Below, piece after piece: positions 9,696-22,253 of a DNA stretch of 64,000 bases. The notes beneath the pieces were generated by a model. That model did no database searches, was not told where the DNA came from, and saw only the letters and a list, made by a program, of their open reading frames with translations. Each line of letters starts with the position of its first letter. The first letter of the stretch is position 1. The translations under genes and the position numbers were made by a program. The stretch is from Vulcanimicrobiota bacterium (lineage in GTDB: Bacteria > Vulcanimicrobiota > Vulcanimicrobiia > Eremiobacterales > Eremiobacteraceae), in NCBI GenBank assembly GCA_963805945.1, contig CAWDVP010000004.1:96001-160000 (forward strand), read 5' to 3'.

Positions 9696-10490
9696 ATGGC
9701 GGACTTCAAAGGTAAGAACATCATCATCACCGGCGGCGGCAGCGGCTTGGGCGCTGCGATGGCCATACATCTCGCTGCATTGGGCGGGCGGGTCATCGTG
9801 GCCGGGCGGCGCCCGGAGATGCTCGCGGAAACGGTTGCCGCGATCGAGACCGCAGGCGGCAAGGCTGACGCCATACCGACCGACGTCCGCGTGCCCGAAC
9901 AGGTGCAGGCGCTCGTCGACGGCGTGGTCAGCAAGCACGGCAGCGTCGATTGCCTGGTCAACAACGCCGCCGGCAACTTCATCGTGCGCGCGGAAGAGCT
10001 CTCGCCGAACGGCTGGAACGCGGTGATCAACATCGTGCTCAACGGCACGTTCTATTGCTCGCGCGCCGTGGGCAAGGCGATGATCGCCGCCGGTCATGGC
10101 GGTTCGATCCTCAACATCGTCGCGGCGTACGCGTGGACCGGTGGACCCGGCACGATCCATTCCGCGGCGGCCAAGGCGGGCGTCATCTCGATGACGCAAA
10201 CGCTAGCGGTGGAGTGGGGCCATCACGGCATCCGCGTGAACGCGCTGTGTCCGGGCGTCGTGAACACGCCGGGCGCCGCCGCGAAGCTCTTCCCGACCGA
10301 GGCGATCCGCGATCGCATCGCGCGGCGCGTGCCGCTCGGCCGGCTCGAGACGTCTGACGAAGTCGCTAAGGCAGCCGCATATCTGCTGTCCGACGATGCG
10401 TCCTATGTCAACGGCGCGGTGCTGGTGGCCGACGGCGGCATGTGGCTCGATCAGGGATTGCTCGCCGCAAACGCCCCCGAAGGCATGTAG
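9696..10490 (+). CDS. SDR oxidoreductase, 2,4-dienoyl-CoA reductase-like
   Basis: TGGGSGLG, NNAAGNF and HSAAAKAG motifs. Confidence 0.85.
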   Translation: MADFKGKNIIITGGGSGLGAAMAIHLAALGGRVIVAGRRPEMLAETVAAIETAGGKADAIPTDVRVPEQVQALVDGVVSKHGSVDCLVNNAAGNFIVRAEELSPNGWNAVINIVLNGTFYCSRAVGKAMIAAGHGGSILNIVAAYAWTGGPGTIHSAAAKAGVISMTQTLAVEWGHHGIRVNALCPGVVNTPGAAAKLFPTEAIRDRIARRVPLGRLETSDEVAKAAAYLLSDDASYVNGAVLVADGGMWLDQGLLAANAPEGM

Positions 10491-10512
10491 GGGTCGACCT
10501 TTAGGTCGACCC
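10485..10512 (+). repeat. REP-like palindrome (GTAG type)
   Basis: atgtagGGGTCGACC-ttta-GGTCGACCC, identical to 13638-13665; its TAG is the SDR stop codon. Confidence 0.85.
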
Positions 10513-10516
10513 AGGA

Positions 10517-10535
10517 ATTGAGACCCATTCTCAAT
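10517..10535. promoter_or_regulatory. Fur/Zur-type operator candidate
   Basis: ATTGAGACC-C-ATTCTCAAT, similar to the perfect box at 25384-25404. Confidence 0.5.
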
Positions 10536-10581
10536 AAGAAGGCCTGAAGAACCTTGCCCTTCGCGCCGATATTGTGGATAT

Positions 10582-11196
10582 ATGAGTGACCTCGCGCTGC
10601 GGATGACCCGCGGCCTCACCCCGATGTACGTCTGCCTGGTGGTGCTGGGCAGCATCGTCGCGCACTTGGCATCCGAATTCTTCTCCATGGGTTCCGAGGC
10701 GAGCGACATCGCGCTCTCGCCCAAGCATCTGTATCTCGGCGTCGCCGCGCTCGTCTGTGCGGCGGTCGTCGTGCTGCAAGCGCGTTCGCTACTGCGATCT
10801 TCCGAAGGCGCGCGCGACCTCAAGCGCCGGCTTCATCTCGGTCTGGAAGCGCTGCCCTTGCGCGGACGCGGCCTCGCGTTCTTGACGCTTACCGCAGGAC
10901 TCCAGCTCGCCATCGGCCTCGCGACGCAGTACGGCGAGGGCTGCCCGTTCTGCGGCCACGACGTGGCAGCGGGCGTCCTCGGCGCGCTGCTCACCGTCAT
11001 CGTGCTCGCGTTTGCGGGACGCTTCATCGGCGCCCGCTTGCCGTCAATCGCCGCGGCCATCGCTGCCCTCTTCATCGAACCTTCGACCAACGCACACGCG
11101 TTGTCATCGCTACGCGACGTCGCGTCGCCGGCGTTCTTCCGCTTCATCTGGTTCAGCCAGCTCTACAACCGCCCTCCGCCTTCCCTCTCGATCTAA
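10582..11196 (+). CDS. Membrane leader protein with CxxC-GH and a C-terminal RPPP motif (putative arrest peptide)
   Basis: About 4 TM segments, CPFCGH, ends YNRPPPSLSI; paralogous to 14802-15473; directly upstream of a TonB-dependent receptor. Confidence 0.75.
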   Translation: MSDLALRMTRGLTPMYVCLVVLGSIVAHLASEFFSMGSEASDIALSPKHLYLGVAALVCAAVVVLQARSLLRSSEGARDLKRRLHLGLEALPLRGRGLAFLTLTAGLQLAIGLATQYGEGCPFCGHDVAAGVLGALLTVIVLAFAGRFIGARLPSIAAAIAALFIEPSTNAHALSSLRDVASPAFFRFIWFSQLYNRPPPSLSI

Positions 11197-11271
11197 CGGC
11201 CGAAGCACTCGGCCGCGCCCAGGACGGTCGAGTGAATTCGACCGCTCCATTCATTTTGAGAGGGAGTCATG
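11170..11271 (+). promoter_or_regulatory. Anti-SD/SD helix coupling the leader ORF to receptor translation
   Basis: TTCCCTCTCGA (11181-11191) can pair with TTGAGAGGGAG (11256-11266), enclosing two hairpins. Confidence 0.6.
11221..11250 (-). repeat. REP-like palindrome (GGAG variant)
   Basis: Minus strand reads atggagCGGTCGAA-ttca-CTCGACCGtcc. Confidence 0.75.
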
Positions 11272-13638
11272 TCATACCATCTCTTCAGCCGCCCGCTGTG
11301 GGCGGCGCTAGCGCTCGCCGGCGTGCTCGCTATGCCGTCGGTCGGCGCGTGCGCCGGAGCGTTTCTGACCGGCTCGGTGACGCTCGACGGCAAACCCGCC
11401 GCCGGTGCGACGGTCACCGCCACGGGCAACAACCTCGTGCAGACGAAGCGCACCGATGCACAGGGACGCTTCAGCTTCAGCACGCTCCAACCGGGCGCGT
11501 ACGCGCTCGACGCGGCGTGGAACGATCGGCGCGCGCATCGCTCGATCGAGCTGTCGGCGAGCGGCGCCGATGTCTCGCTGGAACTTGATCCGAAGAACAT
11601 CGGCAGCATCAAAGTCACCGCGTCGAGCGCCGCGCCCATCAGGGGCGCCGGCACCGACGTCACGCTCAACTCGACGATGCTCACCCGCACGCCGGCCGGC
11701 GGCAGCTTCCCGGAATTGCTCGTGCAGTTGCCCGGCGCGGCGCGCGGGGCCAACGGCGTGGTCCATATCAACGGCGATCACGGCGACATCAACTACATCG
11801 TCGACGGGGCCTCCATCCCGCAAGCGCTCAACCGCGTCATCGGCACCGAGTTCGACGCGAACGACGTCGCGTTCGTCGACGTGCTGCAGGGCGCGTATCC
11901 CGCGCAATACGGAGAGCGTTTCGCCAGCGTGCTCAACATCAGCACGCGCACGGGCACCGGGCCGCCCGGCGCGATCCTCGATCTCTCCGGCGGCTCGTAC
12001 GCGAACTACGATTCGACCGTCGGGTACCACGGCCCGGTCGGTGCGGGCTCACTGGTGCTGGCGGTCCGTGACGGACGCTCGAGCTACGGCCTGGACCCGC
12101 CCGATCTGACCTCGCTTCACAACGACGCGAGCGATGCCAGCCAGTTCCTCCGCTACACGGTGCCTGTCGGCCACGACTACCTCAACTTCACCATGTCGCA
12201 TTCGTATCAGACGTTCCAGGTCCCGATCGACGTGCTCGGCGGCCAGCCCGCGAGCAGCGACGACAACGAGACACAGAACGACACCTTTGCGACGCTGCAG
12301 TACCGCCGCGCCATCGCGGACCGCGGTTCGCTGTCGCTGGGCGCGGCGTATAAGCGCTCGCAGATCCGCGACTTCGGCGATCCGCTGCCCGATTGGGCGT
12401 TCGGCATAAACACGTGGGTCGGCAGCGGCGGGCTGCCGTCGGACTGCTTCAACGCGCTCACGATCACCAATTACGCCAACAGCACGTGCGCCTACACGCT
12501 TGCCGACAACCGCACCGCCACCGATTACAAGTTCAATCTCGACGACGCGCTGCGCGGCGGCGCGCACGAGGTGCGCTGGGGCGCGCTTTATGACGTGACG
12601 CTCGTGCCCAAGCTCTACGACATCACGCTGCAACCGGGCAACTATCTCGCACCGATGTTCACGCCGGGGACGCCGCTCGCGCCGTATCCGGTGATCGACA
12701 ACGCGCCGAACGTCGGCCACACCGAAGCCGCATACCTTCAAGACAGCTGGCGCATGGGCCAGGCGTATCAGCTCGACTACGGGCTGCGCGTCGACGCGTT
12801 CCAGATCTTTTCGGATCAGTTCGACCAGGGCTTTTCCATGTTCAGCCCGCGCATCAAGCTGACGCGCTTCTTCAGTCCGCGCGCGAGCGCGTACGCCTAC
12901 TACGGCCGCTTCTTCACGCCGTTCTCGTTCGAGAACGTGTCGCCGAGCGCGGCGTACCTGCTCAACCTGCCGCTTCAGCCGACGCTCGCTCAGTTCGACC
13001 TCAAGCCGCAGCGCGACTCCGATTACGAGATCGGCGGCCACTTGCCGCTCGGCAAGGGCGATCTCGGCTTGCGCGTGATGCAGAAAGACGCGACTGATCT
13101 CATCGACGACACGCAAGTAGGCGTGACGCTGCTGCACCAGGACATCAACTACCAGCTCGGGCGGATAGCCACGCAGTCGGCGTACTACCAGCAGACGCTT
13201 GCGCACGGCGGTCGTTTTTATGTGACCGGCAACCACACGTATTCGGTCAACAAAGGCTGTGAGACGCAGCTGTTGGCGCCGTGCTTCGGCTCGTCGACGG
13301 ATTGGACGCCAGCCGACCACATGCAGGCGTGGGGCGCCACCTCAGGGATCGTGCTCAACGACGCGCGCGGCGGCTGGTTCTCGATCGACGGCGAGTACGG
13401 GACCGGGCTATCGTCAGCGGGTTGCTCCGCCGCGACGCCGGGCTTCTGCGAATACACGCCGCATCTCACGTTCAACGCGGTGAAGGGCTTCGCGATCGGA
13501 CCGAAGACCGTGGCGACGGTGGGGATCGGCAACCTGCTCAACCATCAGTTCTTCATCACGTATCTCAACGCGCAGGGCAATCATTACTACCCGCCGCTCA
13601 CCGTGAACGTCGGCCTGCGCTTCGGCGTAAGCCGCTGA
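11269..13638 (+). CDS. TonB-dependent receptor-like outer-membrane protein with N-terminal carboxypeptidase-regulatory-like domain
   Basis: Signal peptide; TDAQGRFSF; plug HINGDHGDINYIVDG and GAYPAQYG; barrel YLQDSW, GLRVD, SPRI, LKPQR and NLLN motifs. Confidence 0.85.
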   Translation: MSYHLFSRPLWAALALAGVLAMPSVGACAGAFLTGSVTLDGKPAAGATVTATGNNLVQTKRTDAQGRFSFSTLQPGAYALDAAWNDRRAHRSIELSASGADVSLELDPKNIGSIKVTASSAAPIRGAGTDVTLNSTMLTRTPAGGSFPELLVQLPGAARGANGVVHINGDHGDINYIVDGASIPQALNRVIGTEFDANDVAFVDVLQGAYPAQYGERFASVLNISTRTGTGPPGAILDLSGGSYANYDSTVGYHGPVGAGSLVLAVRDGRSSYGLDPPDLTSLHNDASDASQFLRYTVPVGHDYLNFTMSHSYQTFQVPIDVLGGQPASSDDNETQNDTFATLQYRRAIADRGSLSLGAAYKRSQIRDFGDPLPDWAFGINTWVGSGGLPSDCFNALTITNYANSTCAYTLADNRTATDYKFNLDDALRGGAHEVRWGALYDVTLVPKLYDITLQPGNYLAPMFTPGTPLAPYPVIDNAPNVGHTEAAYLQDSWRMGQAYQLDYGLRVDAFQIFSDQFDQGFSMFSPRIKLTRFFSPRASAYAYYGRFFTPFSFENVSPSAAYLLNLPLQPTLAQFDLKPQRDSDYEIGGHLPLGKGDLGLRVMQKDATDLIDDTQVGVTLLHQDINYQLGRIATQSAYYQQTLAHGGRFYVTGNHTYSVNKGCETQLLAPCFGSSTDWTPADHMQAWGATSGIVLNDARGGWFSIDGEYGTGLSSAGCSAATPGFCEYTPHLTFNAVKGFAIGPKTVATVGIGNLLNHQFFITYLNAQGNHYYPPLTVNVGLRFGVSR

Positions 13639-13665
13639 TGTAGGGGTCGACCTTTAGGTCGACCC
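13638..13665 (+). repeat. REP-like palindrome (GTAG type)
   Basis: atgtagGGGTCGACC-ttta-GGTCGACCC; the loop supplies the TAA of the convergent MauE gene. Confidence 0.85.
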
Positions 13666-14094
13666 TTCGACCGGCCTCCGCCACGACCACCACATCAGAT
13701 AGATCGCGGGGATGATCGCCGCGCCGTCGCGCGCGATCGTCCACCAGGTTACCGGGTCGGTCTCGCGTGGCCCGAAGCAGCCGCACGGAGTCGGGATGCC
13801 GCGCACCACCACGGACGCGAGCGCCGCGATGAACACGAGCAGCACTGCGACCGCCACCACTGAGACGATGCGCAACTGCCAGCCGAGCAGCAGGTACACG
13901 CCCAGCACTATCTCAAGCAACGGCAAAGCGATGGCGGCGAAGCCGACGAATTGCGCCGGCAGATCGAGCCGGAAGGCGACGATCGTGGACCCGAGATCCG
14001 GCGCATGGCCCATCTTGAGGACGCCGGCGGCGATGAACACCAGCCCGACGATGATCCGGGCGATGAGGGGCAGCACGTGAAGAAGACGAGCCAA
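13654..14094 (-). CDS. MauE/DoxX-family redox-associated membrane protein
   Basis: RIIVGLVFIAAGVLK, LPLLEIVLG and CGCFG motifs. Confidence 0.88.
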   Translation of the reverse strand: MARLLHVLPLIARIIVGLVFIAAGVLKMGHAPDLGSTIVAFRLDLPAQFVGFAAIALPLLEIVLGVYLLLGWQLRIVSVVAVAVLLVFIAALASVVVRGIPTPCGCFGPRETDPVTWWTIARDGAAIIPAIYLMWWSWRRPVEGST

Positions 14095-14721
14095 GCATCA
14101 CAACCTTCCGCGAAGCCGACGACGGGACCGCGATGGGGCACCATTTTGCCAGTCATCGCGGGCGTCCTCGTCGTCATCGCGATCGCCGTATATGCGATCA
14201 CGCAATCCCACAAGCTGCCGAGCGCGGCCGTCGAGCCGAACGCGCTGCCGTCGGTGCCGCCGCCGATCAAAGTCGGCGCGCGTGCGCCCGCGTTCTCGGT
14301 GCAGACGCCGCTCGGCGCCGTCTCCAACGACACGTTCGCCGGCAAACCGTACATGGTCGAGCTGTTCGCCACATGGTGCCCGCATTGCCAGCGCATGACG
14401 GCCGTGCTGCGCTCGCTGCGCGCGAAACTGCCGGAGTCGCGCTTCGGCATGGTCTCCGTCACCGGCTCGCCGTACGCCGCAGGCTCGACGCAGGGTGCCC
14501 CCATCGCCGAGAGTCAAGCGGACGTCGACGCGTTCGACAAGTACTTCAACGTCACATGGCTGTCCGTGTGGGATCCGCAACTCACGACGGCGGCGGCGTT
14601 CGGGCTCAACGGCTTTCCGACGATCTTCATCGTGGACGCCAAGGGCACGATTGTCTATACTGCAAGCGGTGAGCTCCCCGAGGCGACGCTGCTCGCCGCC
14701 GCCCGCAAGGCAGGCGCCTGA
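14077..14721 (+). CDS. Membrane-anchored TlpA/ResA-like thiol-disulfide oxidoreductase
   Basis: N-terminal TM, FATWCPHC, cis-Pro GFPT; GTG at 14077 with GAGG upstream. Confidence 0.85.
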   Translation: MKKTSQASQPSAKPTTGPRWGTILPVIAGVLVVIAIAVYAITQSHKLPSAAVEPNALPSVPPPIKVGARAPAFSVQTPLGAVSNDTFAGKPYMVELFATWCPHCQRMTAVLRSLRAKLPESRFGMVSVTGSPYAAGSTQGAPIAESQADVDAFDKYFNVTWLSVWDPQLTTAAAFGLNGFPTIFIVDAKGTIVYTASGELPEATLLAAARKAGA

Positions 14722-14801
14722 CCTTAGAATCCGCTGAGATGTCCACCACGCGGAGCACGGCCACAGGGGGCGCGCGCCCTACGGCCTAATGTATATGCAT
14801 C

Positions 14802-15473
14802 ATGAGGAACCGGGAGGTCTGCTGGCTGTTGATCGGAGCGGTGGCACTTGGCGCATCGCTCGCGGGCCACGCCGTGCAACTCGCGATCGAGTCCGCTCAC
14901 CTCTTCGGCGGCGTGCCTGCGCGCTACAGCCACGTGCTGCAGACACCGATCTCGCTCATCATGTTCGGCGCACTCGTCGTCGCCGCGCTGTTCATCGCGC
15001 GCGGTATCCTCGAAAGCGTCTATGACGAATTCGGCGGTGCCGACTGGCTCGTGCCGGCGCTCGATGCCGTCGCGGCGATCGCGCCCGGCCGCCTCATCGC
15101 ATTGGTCGTCGGTCTGCAGCTCGCGTCGCTCATCGGCGGCGAGCTGACCGAGCAAGCGCTGTCGTCCTACGGCGCATTCGGCTTGGGAGCCATCTTCGGC
15201 CCCGGTCATCTCAGCGCGCCATTCGTGCACGTCGCCATCGGCACGCTCGCCGCGTGGCTGCTGCTCGCGTTCGCGCGCGCCGTCTGCGCTCGCGTTGCGG
15301 ATATCGCTCGCTTCGCGCGCTCGCTCATCGCGTGGGTCTCCCGGCCCGCGCGCGTCCGTTGTGCTCCGGCGCTGCGCGTCCTCGCGCTCGCCTCGGAGTC
15401 ACCCGCACCACCGCTGCTGGCGCGACACATCGCCAGCCGTCCGCCTCCGGCCGCCGCTACGCTTGTAGCATAG
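14802..15473 (+). CDS. Membrane leader protein with His residues and a C-terminal RPPP motif (putative arrest peptide)
   Basis: About 4 TM segments, GLQLA shared with the paralog, ends IASRPPPAAATLVA; upstream of the second receptor. Confidence 0.75.
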   Translation: MRNREVCWLLIGAVALGASLAGHAVQLAIESAHLFGGVPARYSHVLQTPISLIMFGALVVAALFIARGILESVYDEFGGADWLVPALDAVAAIAPGRLIALVVGLQLASLIGGELTEQALSSYGAFGLGAIFGPGHLSAPFVHVAIGTLAAWLLLAFARAVCARVADIARFARSLIAWVSRPARVRCAPALRVLALASESPAPPLLARHIASRPPPAAATLVA

Positions 15474-15534
15474 GCGGCCAAATCCGGCTTCCCGCCTTTT
15501 GGCCGCCTCCCCATAGGGTGGAGGTATGGTCTTG
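15438..15534 (+). promoter_or_regulatory. Mutually exclusive hairpin switch controlling SD access
   Basis: Hairpins 15449-15479, 15472-15508 (perfect 11-bp stem) and 15505-15525 (sequesters GGAGG). Confidence 0.65.
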
Positions 15535-17793
15535 CGTTTTCGTATTTTCTTTTTCATTTCCGTCGCATGCGCCGCGGCGCTCGCAGCGGTCGGCTCATTC
15601 GCACCGGCGTCCGCGAGCACGCTCGGCGCGATCCGCGGCACCGTCTACGATTCCGCCGGGCATCCGCTGCAGCACGCCAAGGTCGTCATCGTGGCCGGCG
15701 TCGGCACCAAGGACAGCACGGCGACCGATGCGTCCGGACGCTACATCTTCCCGCGCGTCGAGTTCGATACGTACACGGTGACCGTCACCGCGGCGGGCCT
15801 GCCGCCGAACAGCCAGATCGTGACCGTCGCGAGCGGCACCGTCACGGTACTTGATTTCCACCTCTCGGAGAAGAAGCTCGCCAGCGTCGTCACCGTCGCC
15901 AAAGCCGGGCACCCGGTGAGCGTGACCGTGATGACGCCGCAGATGATCCAGACGCTGCCGAGCAACTTCAAGCTCGCGAGCGTCACCGAGACGGTGCCCG
16001 GGGTCGTGCCGTTCTCGTACGACGAACCGGTGGTGCGCGGCTTCCACGGCGTCGCGTACTACATCGACGGCATCCCGATCCCGCAGACATCGTCGTCCGC
16101 GTTCGCCGAGGTCCTCGATCCGCGCGATATCGGCTCGGTGGAGGTCTACACAGGCTCGTTCCCCGCCGAGTACGGCGGCAGCCGCCAGGGCGGCGTGGTC
16201 AACATCATCTCCAAACGGCCGAGCGGGAACGGCGGCGACATCACGCTCACCGGCGGCAACTACGCCACCGGCGCCACGCAGCTCAGCGAATCGTTCGGCG
16301 GTCCGACCCTCAAAGCGTACGTATCGCTCAACTTCGACCGCACCGACCGCGGCCTCGATTCACCGACCGCGCAGCCCATCCATGACGCCGCGAGCCAATC
16401 GAACGAATTCATGCGGCTCACATATGTCCCCGACAGCCGCGACTCATGGGCGTTGCATTTCTCCAATCTGTTCTCGACGTTCCAGATCCCGATCGACACG
16501 AATCCGACCAGCGTGAGCTTCGCGCCGCAGGGAAGCGACGACTTGCAGTACGAGTACGCCCGCTATGCGAGCATCGTCTACAACCGCCTGAGCGCGGACG
16601 GCCAAGGCTACCTCGAGATCTCGCCCTGGTATAACCGCAGCCAGGTGAAGTTCTTCCCGGATCCGACCAACGATCTCGCGAGCGCCGCCATGGCGTCGAC
16701 CTTCCAGGATCGGGTCGGCACGTACTACGGGTTGACCGGGGCCTACTTCCGCAGCTGGACGAAGGACAATCTGAAGATCGGCTTCACCGGCGCGGTCGAG
16801 GACTTCACCAGCGCGTTCAACATCCAGTTCATCGATCCCACGACGATGATGTTGCAGCAGTTCAACGACAACGCGGCGCAGACCGGCACGAACTTCGGCA
16901 TCTACGCCGAAGACAAGATGATCCTGTCACCCATGTTCACCACGAACATCGGCCTGCGCTACGACCGCTCGACGGGTTTCACCGACGGCAACCAGGTGAG
17001 TCCGCGCTTCGAGCTCGATTACCTCGCCAATCCCAAGGAGACGGTCCATTTCTATTACGGACGCTTGTACGCGGCGCCGGCGCTCGAAGACACGCGGCGC
17101 AGCGCCGTCGTCATCGGCGGCGGCTCAGGCTTGCCGGTGTACGACCTCAAGCCCGAGACCGATTCGATCTACGAGTTCGGCTTTTCGCATCAGGTGACGC
17201 AGACGTCGAGATGGTACATCAACTATTGGGCGCGCTCCGTCGCCAACGTGCTCGACACGACCCAGATCGGCTCGACGCCGATCTTCACGATCTTCAATTC
17301 GACCTCCGGTCGCGCGCAAGGCATCGAGTTCAGCTACAGCGGGCAGGCGCAGAATCTCAACAGCTACTTCGTGTCGTATGGCCTCTCCGAGAGCCTTGCG
17401 TCGGGCATCTCGGGCGGCACGTTCCTGTTCTCTCCTGATCAGCTTCAGGGCGCCAATGGCTTCGCCCCGGAGGACCACGACCAGACTAACACGCTCAACA
17501 CCGCGTACACGTGGCGGCTGTCGAAGGACCGCCAGACCTGGACCTCGCTGCAGGCGATCTACGGCAGCGGCTATCCCGTGCAGTTCGAGAACGGACCGGG
17601 CAGGCTGCCCGCGCACTGGGAGCTCAACGCGTCGTACGGGCGCTTCGCGACGGGCGGGCATCTCGGCTACCAGCTGCAGGCGACCAACTTGACCAACAAC
17701 ATCTATCTCATCAAACTCAACAACGGCTTCAACACGACCCAATACGCGCGCGGCTTCCAGCTCACGGCGCAGATCACCGCGCCGATCCACTAG
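15526..17793 (+). CDS. TonB-dependent receptor-like outer-membrane protein (paralog of 11269-13638)
   Basis: Signal peptide; TDASGRY, VRGFHG..YYIDG, GSFPAEYG, GLRYD, SPRF, LKPE and DHDQ motifs. The real start is probably TTG 15532, given SD spacing. Confidence 0.85.
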   Translation: MVLRFRIFFFISVACAAALAAVGSFAPASASTLGAIRGTVYDSAGHPLQHAKVVIVAGVGTKDSTATDASGRYIFPRVEFDTYTVTVTAAGLPPNSQIVTVASGTVTVLDFHLSEKKLASVVTVAKAGHPVSVTVMTPQMIQTLPSNFKLASVTETVPGVVPFSYDEPVVRGFHGVAYYIDGIPIPQTSSSAFAEVLDPRDIGSVEVYTGSFPAEYGGSRQGGVVNIISKRPSGNGGDITLTGGNYATGATQLSESFGGPTLKAYVSLNFDRTDRGLDSPTAQPIHDAASQSNEFMRLTYVPDSRDSWALHFSNLFSTFQIPIDTNPTSVSFAPQGSDDLQYEYARYASIVYNRLSADGQGYLEISPWYNRSQVKFFPDPTNDLASAAMASTFQDRVGTYYGLTGAYFRSWTKDNLKIGFTGAVEDFTSAFNIQFIDPTTMMLQQFNDNAAQTGTNFGIYAEDKMILSPMFTTNIGLRYDRSTGFTDGNQVSPRFELDYLANPKETVHFYYGRLYAAPALEDTRRSAVVIGGGSGLPVYDLKPETDSIYEFGFSHQVTQTSRWYINYWARSVANVLDTTQIGSTPIFTIFNSTSGRAQGIEFSYSGQAQNLNSYFVSYGLSESLASGISGGTFLFSPDQLQGANGFAPEDHDQTNTLNTAYTWRLSKDRQTWTSLQAIYGSGYPVQFENGPGRLPAHWELNASYGRFATGGHLGYQLQATNLTNNIYLIKLNNGFNTTQYARGFQLTAQITAPIH

Positions 17794-17855: not shown

Positions 17856-18722
17856 ATGGAGCGAAGCGTCTTTCTTCGGGGTTTGAGCGCCGGCGTGGCG
17901 GGAGCATCTGTTTGCGGATTGGCACCGCTCGTGGCGCGTGCGGCCGATCATGGCGATGCGCCGCATTGGACCTACGGCGGGGGTGAGGACGGCCCCGCGC
18001 ATTGGGGCGACCTCGCGCCCGACTTCCACACCTGCTCGATCGGCCAGCAGCAATCGCCGGTCAATATCAGCGACGTCGCCACCGGCGCGATCGGCGACAT
18101 CCAGCGTTCGTATCGCACCTCGCCGCTGCGCATCATCAACAATGGCCACACCATCCAGGTCGATTACGCCGCCGGCAGCACGCTCACGCTGCGCGGCCGG
18201 ATGTGGGAGATCGTCCAGTTCCACTTCCACACGCCGAGCGAGCACACGTACCAGGGCGCGCACTACGACATGGAGCTGCACATCGTGCATCAGAACACCG
18301 CGAAACATGTGTGCGTCCTCGGCGTCTTCATGAAGGCCGGCACGGCGAACGCCGAGATCCAGAAGATATGGGACGCGATGCCGATGAAGGAGGGGCCCGA
18401 GCAAACGGTGAGCGGCGTCAGCGTCAACGTCGGCGCGCTCGTGCCTGCGACGAAGGTCTACTACAACTATCTCGGTTCGTTCACCACGCCGCCGTGCACT
18501 GAGAACGTCGAATGGCTGGTGCTGCGCGATCCGATCCAGGTCTCAGCCGCGCAGATCGCGCGCTTCAAAGCGGCGATCCCGATGAACGCGCGGCCGGTGC
18601 AGCCGGTCAACCAGCGGTTGGTCATCAGAACCTGTCTACTGCGACGCGTTTGCCTGGTTGTGCAGGTACGCGTCGATGAACGACTGGATCTTGGCCTGAT
18701 CGATCGTGTCGAGCGTCCCTAA
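17856..18722 (+). CDS. Alpha-class carbonic anhydrase, exported
   Basis: QSPVNI, NNGHT, QFHFHTPSEH, ELHIVH, GSFTTPPCTE and NARPVQP motifs. The 3' end overlaps the convergent gene, so the true stop may be near 18640. Confidence 0.9.
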   Translation: MERSVFLRGLSAGVAGASVCGLAPLVARAADHGDAPHWTYGGGEDGPAHWGDLAPDFHTCSIGQQQSPVNISDVATGAIGDIQRSYRTSPLRIINNGHTIQVDYAAGSTLTLRGRMWEIVQFHFHTPSEHTYQGAHYDMELHIVHQNTAKHVCVLGVFMKAGTANAEIQKIWDAMPMKEGPEQTVSGVSVNVGALVPATKVYYNYLGSFTTPPCTENVEWLVLRDPIQVSAAQIARFKAAIPMNARPVQPVNQRLVIRTCLLRRVCLVVQVRVDERLDLGLIDRVERP

Positions 18723-19303
18723 TCGCGTCCACGCGGTCACCGCGATCTTGTGCTTCATGCCTGGATACGGCGCGACGATGACCGCTTGGCCGGATTCTTC
18801 AGCGCTCTGGACGTCTGCCGGCAGCGGCTGGAGCTGGCTCACCGGGACCAGTTTCGAGTCGTAGGTATAGGCGATCTGGTAGAGCGCACCCGCGATGTCC
18901 GGACAGTTGCAGTTGTACTGCAGCAGCACGTTGCCGTGCTCGAGCAGATGGACTTGCACCCACTTGGGCAGCGGCGTCGGGCTGTTGAACGAATCGTTGA
19001 ACGCCTCTTTGTGCGGCCCGGACGTCGGCGGGTCGGAGTTGTAGGCGAAGTCGGTGGACTCGCCAGCATCGAAATGCTTGTGCCCCTGCGACGGGTAGTG
19101 CGTGCCCAGGAATTTGAGCATGATGACCGTCCCCGCCGAGGCGCTCGCCGCGGCAGCGGTTGCGCCCGACGGCGCCGGGGATGCGCTCGCATCGCTGGCG
19201 GATTTGGTGCAGCCGCCGACGGCAAGCGCGAGGGCGATTGCGCCGGCCGCTGCGATGGCCTGTAGTGCCCGAGCGAAGCTCGGGTTTTTTCTTTCGTCGT
19301 CAT
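18636..19303 (-). CDS. DUF3105-like lipoprotein (probable 1-nt indel near the start)
   Basis: YNSDPPTSGPH, VHLLEHG and AWTR motifs; lipobox AVGGC. The coupled ATG at 19303 is one base out of frame; an alternative in-frame TTG lies at 19328. Confidence 0.75.
19262..19284 (+). repeat. REP-like palindrome, type B
   Basis: GTAGTG-CCCGAGC-gaa-GCTCGGG, identical to 63191-63213 and to the reverse complement of 48240-48262. Confidence 0.85.
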
Positions 19304-19983
19304 TGCGTCGAATTCGCCTGGTTCGCAAGATACGCGTTGATGAAGCGGATGATCGTCGCCTGATCGAACGCGTCGAGCCACTCGAGCCGCGTCCAGGCGG
19401 TGAGCGCGATCTTGTGCTTCATGCCCGGATACGGCGCGACGATGACGCCGGTGCCGCGCTCTTCGACGCCCTGCGCCAAGTCAGCCGTGAAACCGGTCGC
19501 GCCCGGCGGCAGCTGCCGGTTGTTGTACTCGGCGGCGAGCTGCGCCAATGCGCCTGCGATATCGGGGCACTGGCAGCTGTACTGCATCAACACGTTGCCG
19601 TGCTCGAGCAAGTGGACCTGCATGTACTTGGGAAGCGGCTGCATGCTGATGAGCTCCTGGGAGAACTGCTCGAGGTGCATGCCCGAGGTCGGCGGATCGG
19701 AGCTGTAATGGAAGGTCGAGACGCCGGCGTCATCGGGTCCCTTCTTATCGTGACCTTGATGGCCTTGCGATTTGAAGAACAGGCCCGGCGTCTCGCGGGG
19801 TCCCGGCGACGCGGTCGACGTGGCCGCGGGCGAAGGGCTTGCGCTGACCGCCGACGGCGGGTTGCGGTGCGAGATGCTCATGACGATGAGCGCGACGATG
19901 GCGATGACGACGAAGGCGGCGAACGCGAGCGTCGCCATGCGGGCGGTCTGGTCGGCCGCCGGCGTGGTGGATTTCTTCGACAT
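19300..19983 (-). CDS. DUF3105-like membrane-anchored protein
   Basis: N-terminal TM; YSSDPPTSGMH, VHLLEHG and AWTR motifs; tandem paralog. Confidence 0.8.
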   Translation of the reverse strand: MSKKSTTPAADQTARMATLAFAAFVVIAIVALIVMSISHRNPPSAVSASPSPAATSTASPGPRETPGLFFKSQGHQGHDKKGPDDAGVSTFHYSSDPPTSGMHLEQFSQELISMQPLPKYMQVHLLEHGNVLMQYSCQCPDIAGALAQLAAEYNNRQLPPGATGFTADLAQGVEERGTGVIVAPYPGMKHKIALTAWTRLEWLDAFDQATIIRFINAYLANQANSTQ

Positions 19984-20048
19984 GGCGCGGCCTATTCGCG
20001 GGGATTCAGGGCGACGCCTGTAGCGGATGCGCCATCAGCGGCATCGCA

Positions 20049-21542
20049 TCAGGGTACCGCATGCAGCGCATTCACGAATGCGTAGATGACGAGCGGCACG
20101 GCGATGACCACATAGATGCGCAAGAGCCATAACAGCGCCGTCACGCCAGGCCCGAGCTTGCGGCGGGGCAGAGGCGGCCTCATTTCGGGATGATGTTCGG
20201 GAACACGGTGATGACGCCGTATGCCGAACCCATGAGCGCGATGATGATGATGATGGCGCCTCCCAGCGCTTGCTCTTCCACCCGTTCGCCAGCGGTCCGA
20301 TGACCTCACGGTCGTTGGCGAGCAGGAGCAAGAACAGCAGCGCCGGCGCCATCAGCAGGGTGGCGATGACGTTGACGGCAGATCGTGATGGCGAGCAGCG
20401 GCGCGTGCGGGATCAGCACGACGGCGGCGGCGACGACGACCGAGACGATGGCCGACGCGTAGAACGGCCGCGCGCTGGCGAAATCCGGCGTTGAGGCTGT
20501 GCGCGCGCGGATACTCTCGCCGAACGCGTAGGCCGAGCTCGTGGAGATCGTCATCGCGGCCACCAGCCCGGCCTCGATGATGCCGAGCGCGAACAGCGTC
20601 GCCGCCTGTGCCCGCCGAGCAACGGCTGCAGCGCGGTCGCGAAGTCGGCGCCGCTGGCGAAGCTGACGAGACGTTGACATGATGCGATGAAGAGCGGCGC
20701 GGCGGCCACGAGAGTGGCGATCGCGGCGACCGCCGCGACCGCCGCGCCGATCGCGGTGTCGAACCGGCCCTGCGGCAGATCGGCTCGCGCCAGGCCTTTG
20801 TCCACCACCGCGCTCTGCTGGAAGAAGATCATCCACGGCGTGACCGTGGCGCCGATGTCGCCAGGATGAGCGTCACGAAGCGCAGCAGTCGAGCCCGCCT
20901 GGCAGCGGGCTCCAGGTGCCGAACGCGTGCGCCAGCGCCGCCCCGCTCGGATGCGCCAAGAGCGCCGCGGGGACGAACAGCAGGTTGAACGCCGCGAGCG
21001 CCAGCACGGCGCGCTCCCAGGTGAAGTAGCGCCGCATGCGAGCGACGCGAAGATCACAGGCCGCGCCGCCCGCCACCGACAGCCAGCGGCGCGGAGATGC
21101 CGAAGTACAGCCCACCGGCCTGGATCGCGATGAACTCGGTGATCAGGGTCAGCACGTTGCCGAACGGCGAGATCGACCATCGAGAAGTAGCCCCAGAACG
21201 GCCGAAGCGGTCGAAGATGAGCTCGGCATGTCCGCGATGCGTCGCGATGCCGAGACGCACCGTCATCTCCTGCACGACGAACGCCATGAAGAACGTGAGC
21301 AGGATGAACGGGACGAAGAAACCGATGCCGTAGGTCGCGCCGGTCGTCGCGTACGAGAGCATGCTCGGGCCGTCGTTCTCGCCGAGCATGACCAGAATGC
21401 CGGGACCCGCGAGCAGGAAGTACAACCAGATGGGCTGGTGTTCGCGGCGCGCTTCGACCACCCGCGCTCGATCGCGCGCGCGCAGCGTCTCCTCGCGCGA
21501 CGCGCGCTGGTCCGCGGCGGAGACCTCCACGAACTCACCCAT
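20049..21542 (-). pseudogene. Nramp-family divalent metal transporter (multiple frameshifts, likely sequence errors)
   Basis: GPGILVMLGENDG, QEMTVRLG, IGATVTPWMIFFQQS and LLLLANDRE motifs split over several frames. Confidence 0.8.
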
Positions 21543-22230
21543 GCGCGGCAGCCTTCACCCGGATCGCCGTGCAGCGCACTTCGCCGGCGGCCTTGCGCGC
21601 GACGGTCAAAGATCGCCGGCCGATCCGCAACCGGATGCCGGCCGCGCTTGCGGACTCCACCGTGCCGCGTAAACCCGGCAGCACGCCTCGTTCGCGCAGA
21701 TACTTGACCGCCGCTTCATCGCGATCGTCGAGAAACGTGACGACCACCGTGTCGCCGCGACCGGTATCCGAAAGACGCATGCCCTTCGCCTTGACGTTCG
21801 CACCGCGCGGCGACGGGATGGGATGCCCATGCGGATCGGTCGCCGGATTGCCGAGGAAGTCGGCGAGTCGGCGCGCGATGTCGTCCGAGATCGCGTGCTC
21901 GATCTTCTCCGCGTCCGCGTGGACGCGCTCGAGCGGCACCTTCAGCGCGAGATGGAGGAACGTCTCGACGAGGCGATGCCGGCGCACCATGTCGAGCGCG
22001 AGACGCGTGCCGCGCGCGGTCAGCTGCAGCAGGCCGCCCGCGCCGAGGTCGCGCACGAAGCCGCGCCGCTGCAGGTCGCGCACCAGCTTGCTCACCGACG
22101 CGCGTGACACGCCGAGGCGCCGCGCCACATCCGCCGACTTGACGGGCTCGCCTCCGCCGAGCTGGTAGATCGCCTTGCAGTAGTCCTGCCGCGCACGCTC
22201 CGGCGAACGGTCGCCGCCGGCGTTAACCAT
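21535..22230 (-). CDS. DtxR/MntR-family metal-dependent repressor with FeoA/SH3 domain
   Basis: QDYCKAIY, VSRASVS, RRHRLVETFL, AEKIEH and DPHGHPIP motifs. Confidence 0.92.
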   Translation of the reverse strand: MVNAGGDRSPERARQDYCKAIYQLGGGEPVKSADVARRLGVSRASVSKLVRDLQRRGFVRDLGAGGLLQLTARGTRLALDMVRRHRLVETFLHLALKVPLERVHADAEKIEHAISDDIARRLADFLGNPATDPHGHPIPSPRGANVKAKGMRLSDTGRGDTVVVTFLDDRDEAAVKYLRERGVLPGLRGTVESASAAGIRLRIGRRSLTVARKAAGEVRCTAIRVKAAAHG

Positions 22231-22253
22231 AGCTAACGTCAACCATGGTTAAC
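22222..22253. promoter_or_regulatory. Tandem 16-bp imperfect palindromes, candidate DtxR/MntR operator
   Basis: GTTAACCATAGCTAAC followed by GTCAACCATGGTTAAC, overlapping the start codon. Confidence 0.6.

Follow-up and report, generated by a model that had tools for sequence, protein, structure and literature searches.

Regulation by arrest peptides is already known for Sec and YidC factors, to which the copper genes of CruR and CutF have lately been added. Upstream of TonB receptors, RAPP and RGPP have been established as motifs that cause arrest (PMC12992588, PMC9426467); the former paper reports a robust arrest resistant to elongation factor P (EF-P), and an enrichment of the two motifs at the C-termini of secreted or membrane proteins encoded upstream of TonB receptors. 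Among the XPPP contexts compared in E. coli devoid of EF-P, a related motif, RPPP, gave the strongest stalling (PMC4176338). Here we analyse the junction between two co-oriented genes of the + strand, leader 2 and receptor 2, in a 64,000-nucleotide (nt) stretch of Vulcanimicrobiota DNA with 66% G+C (hereafter the window, in which all coordinates are given), taken from a genome of 2.3 Mb. Leader 2 carries RPPP close to its C-terminus, and translation of the receptor encoded next to it probably requires a ribosome halted at this motif. We find it fairly probable that the two genes form a regulatory junction, an arrest-gated operon of the kind known from SecM, CutF and CruR, built here on an uncurated protein family. 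The basis is in silico and comparative: the way the RNA pairs, the extent to which these pairs are conserved and co-vary, a bias in the choice of codons, and the family of RxPP motifs.

The leader 2 gene (14802..15473, +) is an open reading frame (ORF) for a membrane protein of 223 amino acids (aa), with four long helices and a C-terminal tail, whose sequence ends in ...PPLLARHIASRPPPAAATLVA before the stop. The codons of its conserved C-terminal peptide PPLLARHIAS-RPPP (15408..15449, +), a putative arrest sequence, finish with those of RPPP (15438-15449). Seven tail codons, AAATLVA, and the stop TAG (15471-73) follow, occupying 15450..15473 (+) and holding a small hairpin (15456-60/15465-69). 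The Shine-Dalgarno (SD) region of receptor 2 lies at 15516..15525 (+), where GGAGG (15520-24) complements the 3' tail of the genome's own 16S rRNA, CACCUCCU. Receptor 2 (15532..17793, +) has Pfam matches to CarboxypepD_reg, Plug and TonB-dependent barrel domains. Two in-frame start codons are available, TTG 15532, 7 nt past GGAGG, and ATG 15526, two codons upstream and 1 nt past the SD. An earlier first-pass annotation of this DNA had taken TTG 15532 for the real start, and this is likely so: four of five same-genus orthologues start 6 to 8 nt after GGAGG, with an M/L-R N-terminus, the exception being L006, with an ATG 3 nt after the SD.

Folding of the junction RNA (15430-15545) yielded a minimum free energy (MFE) of -54.7 kcal/mol, compared to a mean of -40.8 (standard deviation 3.3) for dinucleotide shuffles (z = -4.17, none of 200 being as stable). 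The MFE structure contains a long-range helix, absent from the first-pass annotation, in which 15443-49 and 15451-52 pair with 15516-17 and 15519-25, that is, with the SD. Its 5' strand, anti-SD 1 (15443..15452, +), is made of the second and third Pro codons and the first tail codon, and 7.5 pairs between it and the SD are expected in the free state. The MFE helix extends to 15431-40 paired with 15526-36, so as to span both candidate start codons, and it encloses the small GCUAC hairpin of the tail together with a larger one, hairpin 2:3 (15472..15508, +; 37 nt, 11 bp, with an inner 3-bp stem 15486-88/15494-96). The 3' strand of the latter carries a second sequence complementary to the SD, anti-SD 2 (15505..15512, +), predicted to pair with the SD only when 2:3 is melted. 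Hairpin 2:3 is constitutive in the model: its pair probabilities lie between 0.85 and 0.997, and all 6 species of the genus share its 10-bp core unchanged. The sequence after it is CUCCCCAUAGGG. As a repeat element, 2:3 was discarded, with a single copy in the 2.3-Mb genome and 12 occurrences of its 10-mers, about what chance gives by a rough estimate.

Ribosomes were modelled by masking their footprint only (P site -12 to +13), 60 nt of the preceding sequence being retained, and the ensemble cost of opening the segment from the SD to the start was computed. In the window this cost amounts to 13.4 kcal/mol for the free RNA, drops to 6.8 when the second Pro codon occupies the P site, and is 14.2 for a ribosome at the stop. 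The last value is due to the terminating ribosome melting 2:3, whose 3' strand (segment 3 in the numbering of the first-pass annotation) then forms the pairing 3:4 with the SD. The expected number of pairs between segment 3 and the SD was 0.4 in the free RNA and 7.3 with a ribosome at the stop; in that last state the genus's five remaining species had 8.3-9.0, which gives a range of 7.3-9.0 in 6 of 6. The arrested cost was below the terminating cost by at least 3.7 kcal/mol in all six species, and in five of them the SD was at least as closed with a ribosome at the stop as in free RNA.

These predictions can be compared with the scheme of the first-pass annotation, a three-hairpin attenuator in which the free mRNA folds 1:2 plus 3:4 with the SD closed; a ribosome stalled at RPPP covers segment 1, segment 2 switches to segment 3, and the SD is freed. 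The three pairings do exist, every pair being canonical or G-U: 1:2 joins 15449-55 to 15473-79 and 15456-60 to 15465-69 (-22.3 kcal/mol), 2:3 joins 15472-82 to 15498-508 by 11 perfect pairs (-19.4 kcal/mol), and 3:4 joins 15505-10 to 15520-25 and 15511-12 to 15517-18 (-12.5 kcal/mol). As the RPPP codons end at 15449, segment 1 opens with the final base of the third Pro codon. That 2:3 competes with 3:4 is also real: 2:3 sequesters segment 3, and when segment 2 is taken up, the SD is closed by 3:4. Hairpin 2:3 is, however, already formed in the free RNA and does not await stalling. Similarly, the SD is closed in the naked mRNA as had been proposed, but it is the RPPP codons, not segment 3, that close it. 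The supposed free state is where the scheme fails: 1:2 plus 3:4 reaches -34.8 kcal/mol, 20 worse than the MFE, and the ensemble probability of the outer 1:2 helix is 0.003, compared to ∼0.99 for 2:3 and ∼0 for 3:4. At most 0.3 outer 1:2 pairs are expected in any of the six species of the genus, and the 7/7 complementarity of this helix is found in the window only, dropping to 5-6/7 in the five other species with no compensating change. Helix 1:2 is transcribed first and could form transiently; even so, we consider the three-hairpin attenuator very improbable. The term attenuator in its transcriptional sense (trp type) is inapplicable, as a terminator and promoter scan found no terminator at either leader-receptor junction of the window and nothing terminator-like at 15400-15540. 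Leader 2, for its part, is a conserved 223-aa membrane protein and not a short leader peptide. The earlier scheme was thus only partly right, and its best-supported part is that a ribosome on RPPP is predicted to open the SD, which corresponds to the fall from 13.4 to 6.8 kcal/mol reported above.

The window contains a paralogous unit, which was analysed in the same way. Its leader gene (10582..11196, +) encodes 204 aa with a CPFC motif and the C-terminus ...LYNRPPPSLSI; the RPPP codons (11170-81) are followed by four tail codons that carry the anti-SD (11182-93) and by the stop (11194-96). The SD of receptor 1, GAGAGGGAG (11258-66), is complementary to these tail codons, its partner lying at R+14..R+17, and precedes ATG 11269; SD and receptor 1 gene together span 11258..13638 (+), and the product has TonB barrel and CarboxypepD_reg domains. 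Opening costs at this junction are 14.7 kcal/mol free, 7.6 arrested and 9.6 terminating.

Orthologues of leader 2, followed in their loci by a receptor homologue (CarboxypepD_reg/TonB), were found in 27 of 61 related genomes (25 of 31 within the same family), and the paralogous leader family in 30 of the 61. Unpublished genomes G010, G013 and G016 supply L017, L044, L061 and L066 to the counts, and no conclusion rests on these alone. In the free MFE structures, the pairing partner of the SD falls within the arrested footprint (R-6..R+19) at 18 of the 22 junctions of the leader-2 family and at 24 of the 25 of the paralogue family (42/47); for the terminating footprint the numbers are 2 of 22 and 14 of 25, respectively. 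The stop of the paralogue leaders may lie anywhere between +21 and +45, yet their anti-SD keeps to about R+12..R+19, meaning that the anti-SD is placed relative to the arrest motif and not to the stop. Mean opening costs for the free, arrested and terminating states are 13.4, 7.9 and 11.6 kcal/mol in the leader-2 family (n=22), and 12.3, 5.7 and 8.1 kcal/mol in the paralogue family (n=25). A control with 48 other same-strand junctions of the genome, in which the end of the upstream gene was masked, gave a shift of 0.4 +/- 2.7, and none reached the family median of 6.5.

A search for covariation among orthologues, which the first-pass annotation had asked for, gave a divided answer: RNAalifold retrieved the long-range helix in both families, but the core of this helix is invariant and the covariation term is close to 0. 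For this reason, comparisons of cognate with non-cognate pairs and synonymous recoding were used instead. Duplexes between cognate tails and SDs are more stable than non-cognate ones in both families (-18.0 versus -15.2 in one, -18.7 versus -12.4 in the other), and 0 of 20,000 permutations reach either value. Examples of matched tail/SD pairs are CUCUCCAAGUC/GACUUGGAGAG (L042), GCUCCCG/CGGGAGC (L052) and CCUCUCG/CGAGAGG (L038), the matched flanks varying between genera. With 300 synonymous recodings per junction, the native sequence paired better than at least 95% of them in 13 of 22 junctions; in the window, anti-SD 1 pairs with the SD better than 96% of its recodings (rank 0.04). Proline codon choice in the 47 junctions is biased: CCT is found at P2 in 22 and CCA at P1 in 16, for a pooled local use of 9% and 11% and a genome-wide use of 5.9% and 5.5% in genome G000, while P3 resembles background. 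The resulting CCA-CCU-CC copies the 16S tail CACCUCC of the same genome. RNA of such G+C content always folds, and a chance structure with no regulatory role would be one way to read the MFE, but in view of the z-score, of control junctions that behave differently, of the advantage of cognate over non-cognate pairs in two families and of the biased codons, we hardly give it credit.

Two further structures were seen around the leader stops. At the F1 junctions of several genera (for example L045, L048, L050, L051), the stop sits in the loop or stem of a conserved CAUCA...UGAUG hairpin between anti-SD and SD. At leader-2 junctions outside the window's genus, it lies inside a CUAGGC/GCCUAG-type helix.

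We then considered the motif itself. All 23 distinct leader-2 orthologous loci end in [N/S]RPPP plus 5-7 residues (among the 23 orthologues, the tail has seven codons in 19, six in 2 and five in 1), and in all 27 loci of the paralogue family NRPPP is followed by 0-11 residues. What is conserved in [N/S]RPPP is the peptide, since its Arg and Pro codons vary synonymously. When 1.84 billion representatives were searched with a profile, 402 proteins of about 200-240 aa were retrieved at E <= 1e-3. Among the best 150 of these 402, 137 have R[PAG]PP within their last 20 residues (64 RPPP, 59 RAPP, 14 RGPP), with tails of 1-11 residues (mode 6); seven of the 13 that lack it are fragments below 190 aa. 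RAPP or RGPP is present in 29 of 31 public loci of the RAPP-type relatives, and the distance from E..E[QHRK] to the Arg is 94-100 residues in 110 of 117 homologues. When ORFs with a C-terminal RxPP were collected across genome G000, only the two leaders looked genuine, the rest being short or seemingly out of frame. Leader 2 shares most features of the RAPP-like class: a conserved R-x-P-P within some 15 residues of the C-terminus (RPPP stands 7 residues from its end), a membrane segment at the N-terminus according to the structural model presented below, and a co-oriented downstream gene whose SD is predicted to be sequestered and then freed by a ribosome at the arrest site. It departs from the class in size, since members are mostly below 150 aa and the two leaders have 223 and 204. 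We take the leader RPPP to behave like an arrest motif of the RxPP class and, from these sequence features, to be a putative stalling site. Just 5' of RPPP, the LLARHIAS codons contain a conserved hairpin, CUGGCG...CGCCAG (window 15411-15436); the amino acids are conserved too, and selection on RNA and on peptide are therefore inseparable here.

Another arrangement would be plain translational coupling, where RPPP is a functional part of the mature membrane protein and no programmed arrest, and any ribosome at the end of the leader opens the SD. The anti-SD does lie in coding sequence near the stop, and for the 14 paralogue junctions counted above a terminating ribosome would cover it as well. 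EF-P is present, and the size of the leader, together with good conservation from end to end, makes a function of its own probable. Against coupling stand the positioning of the anti-SD by RPPP and not by a stop that moves from +21 to +45, and the fact that in 5 of the 6 same-genus species a terminating ribosome makes the SD no more open than it is in free RNA. Moreover, the 137 of 150 homologues exchange P, A and G within RxPP while the motif keeps a constant, short distance to the C-terminus, a pattern that mirrors known arrest motifs, and the C-terminal 35 residues are modelled at low confidence (62-73). Plain coupling is in our opinion improbable, although less so than the attenuator.

What the leader proteins sense may be approached from their conservation. 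The AlphaFold2 (AF2) model of leader 2 has a mean predicted local distance difference test score (pLDDT) of 80.9 and comprises four long hydrophobic helices (3-31, 47-74, 95-120, 138-163), which, going by this model, probably lie in the membrane; the low confidence of the last 35 residues has just been mentioned. Invariant residues are H23, H44, Q106, G133, A211, R213 and P214-216, and the invariant or nearly invariant polar ones are H23, H44, Q106, E114, E117 and Q118. The paralogous leader carries CPFCGHD. Together with these polar residues, this motif suggests a ligand or metal site, and the leader families may accordingly be ones that bind a ligand or metal. For leader 2, no named family or fold was found in Pfam (E <= 10), NCBIfam, the ESM Atlas or, with Foldseek, the PDB (best E 0.58). 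Neither leader has any Pfam hit at E <= 10, DUF2946/CruR (PF11162) included, and 10 homologues gave none. Leader 2 has no CXXC, and the CPFC of the paralogue is about 72 residues ahead of RPPP, compared to about 45 residues between CXXC and RAPP in DUF2946/CruR. A BLASTP comparison of the two leaders was not significant (E 0.29), so that a comparison of profiles was needed to relate the two families; with hhalign, they prove to be related over their C-terminal halves (probability 93%, E 2.6e-7).

In the loci examined, the family is found mainly in Eremiobacterota/Vulcanimicrobiota, with some members in Chloroflexota and Acidobacteriota. Among 30 ORFs scanned downstream of RAPP-type relatives, 14 are of the CarboxypepD_reg/TonB type (∼915 aa) and 9 of the LytR_cpsA_psr (LCP) type; the remaining ones are one bestrophin-like, one CsoR-like repressor, and 5 unnamed. 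LCP genes, in place of receptors, stand 3' of RAPP/RGPP-type members in L080, L082, L086 and L089-L093 (public Eremiobacterota and Acidobacteriota records). Given these members upstream of LCP genes, the leader family seems to gate several kinds of envelope genes. A frame change, accompanied by a single TGA in frame, divides one leader-2 orthologue (L008/L029, same-genus G002:C1, ∼747700-748400); its junction RNA is nevertheless intact. A literature search returned no paper describing the leader family, the supplements of PMC12992588 being only partly readable; in what was searchable of these, there was no WLGGP/WLGAP-motif entry and no taxon name of the phylum, which does not imply absence from its lists.

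From these elements we propose a mechanism in three states. In the naked mRNA, the SD and start would be locked by the long-range helix with the codons of RPPP and the first tail codons, which read like a 16S anti-SD, hairpin 2:3 being folded within the loop. With a ribosome on RPPP (P site on the second Pro), anti-SD 1 would be covered, 2:3 would stay folded and hold anti-SD 2, and the SD would be free for translation of the receptor. Once the ribosome is at the stop, 2:3 would melt, anti-SD 2 would be released, and 3:4 would close the SD again; ordinary read-through would in this way be uncoupled from receptor translation. Receptor synthesis would then report the dwell time of ribosomes on RPPP, presumably set by the input to the inserted sensor domain (ligand, metal or membrane insertion force) or by EF-P. 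We infer that arrest at RPPP takes place, what may relieve it, and that translation rather than Rho is the step controlled.

A wider claim can be made, to which we give somewhat less than even credence as a whole. It holds that about 400 clusters (at 50% identity) form an uncurated family of four-helix sensor-leaders ending in RxPP, in which arrest and tail codons are selected as mimics of the 16S anti-SD, so that a parked ribosome alone could uncover the SD of the next gene. In the window's genus, the second lock at the stop would make receptor translation strictly dependent on arrest and not coupled to translation. The bundle, with its conserved His, Glu and Gln, would be outside the ribosome at the time of arrest, and would tune the dwell time to a metal or envelope cue.

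The controlled step could also be transcription. In the CruR manner, arrest on RPPP would act not on the SD but on the C-rich 3' end of the leader gene, where it would hide a loading site for Rho, and release would lead to Rho termination before the receptor. C>G bubbles are present at 15350-15505 (C 42-49%, G 27-32%) and at 10994-11253 in the paralogous unit, and the genome encodes Rho in addition to EF-P. Moreover the nearest experimental precedent, CruR-bfrG, itself works via Rho and also controls a TonB receptor, as far as the accessible part of PMC9426467 describes it. However, the intergenic region here has ∼58 nt, compared to 162 in B. pertussis, and is strongly structured, and the co-varying anti-SD/SD helix would be left with no role in a purely Rho-based scheme. 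We therefore rate control by Rho as unlikely, but the most plausible of the alternatives. It might add to the SD lock: with C>G-rich leader 3' ends and rho present, the two mechanisms may coexist.

Several points weigh against an arrest-gated SD lock. Stalling on RPPP in this organism is a prediction from sequence; EF-P normally relieves PPP stalls, and the genome has it. Pro-Pro codons are intrinsically rich in CC, so that some likeness to an anti-SD comes free, and with an invariant helix core, covariation based on alignments is weak. Within the window's genus, the recoding test was significant in only 2 of 6 species, and arrest cut the cost by at least 3 kcal/mol relative to the free state in only 3 of 6 (the change being 0.5 in L003 and -0.5 in L004). 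The gain in the window, free minus masked (4.8), is equalled by 5 of the 48 control junctions, and 6.8 kcal/mol of residual structure remains in the arrested state. Orthologues are kin, and counts made on them overstate independence. Finally, the C>G-rich 3' end of both leader genes suits control by Rho equally well.

The neighbourhood appears to be metal-related: a redoxin gene (13951-14721) lies between the two leader-receptor units, and the region 17856-22242 includes an alpha-type carbonic anhydrase (17856-18722), a tandem pair of DUF3105 genes (18636-19328 and 19300-19983, -) and a DtxR-like repressor with a FeoA domain (21535-22242, -). Nramp matches are found in two ORFs of different frames on the - strand, 21054-21542 for the N-terminal part and 20306-20836 for the C-terminal part; a transporter gene that is broken or has undergone a frameshift may account for this, or else an artefact of the ORF listing. 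In other genera both leader genes stand back to back, diverging. A scan of 10400-15800 with the Rfam covariance models (cmscan, E <= 1) gave no relevant family, the only hit being a chance miRNA match elsewhere.

If the proposal is correct, the known arrest regulators would be joined by a large family of membrane proteins that lacks annotation and comes from a phylum with few cultured members. RPPP would count as a naturally occurring motif of the RxPP arrest class, and there would be a compact design in which the stall codons are themselves the anti-SD, with a second lock that separates arrested from transiting ribosomes. It also suggests that surveys restricted to RAPP/RGPP and to small proteins would miss such regulators. 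Constructs of ∼100 nt would be enough for a direct test, and offer a handle on how Eremiobacterota control TonB-dependent uptake.

The closest relative among described systems is CruR (Bp2923, DUF2946)-bfrG of Bordetella pertussis. It shares with leader 2 a C-terminal R-x-P-P a few residues before the stop of the upstream ORF, a C>G-rich 3' end of that ORF, a TonB-dependent receptor gene directly downstream, and an arrest motif held at a conserved distance from a putative sensing motif (PMC9426467). The differences are that our leaders have no DUF2946 match, that 223 aa with four membrane helices replace an exported protein of 145 aa, that RPPP replaces RAPP, that leader 2 has no CXXC, and that the spacer is structured and of ∼58 nt instead of 162. 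CruR acts through Rho, whereas the co-varying anti-SD/SD helix points here to translational control.

CutF-cutO of Rhodobacter capsulatus has in common with our junction a Pro-rich, stalling-like motif at the C-terminus, a stem-loop shielding the SD of the next gene, and a co-translationally localised sensor protein in a metal context (PMC9973294). CutF differs in being a small Sec-exported CxxxC protein followed by a multicopper oxidase gene, and its anti-SD belongs to an intergenic stem-loop and not to the stall codons. Polyproline pausing dependent on EF-P (for example the XPPP series in NlpD/CadC, PMC4176338) bears on leader 2 through RPPP, the strongest XPPP context in E. coli without EF-P, but such pauses tune the level of the very protein in which they occur, and no downstream SD switch is known for them.

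SecM-secA, MifM-yidC2, VemP-secDF2 and the RAPP-type ApdA/ApdP (PMC10987492, PMC10951233) likewise have a protein that is secreted or inserted in the membrane and carries an arrest sequence at its C-terminus, a motif of the R-x-P-P/RAGP class, and a stalled ribosome that disrupts a structure sequestering the downstream SD. Our system is unlike them in its target, an outer-membrane receptor (an LCP protein in relatives) and not a Sec or YidC component, and in its sensor, a much larger protein with a conserved polar and His-rich helical bundle. It also differs in its RNA, where the anti-SD overlaps the arrest codons, and where a second lock, specific to the genus, would act against terminating ribosomes.

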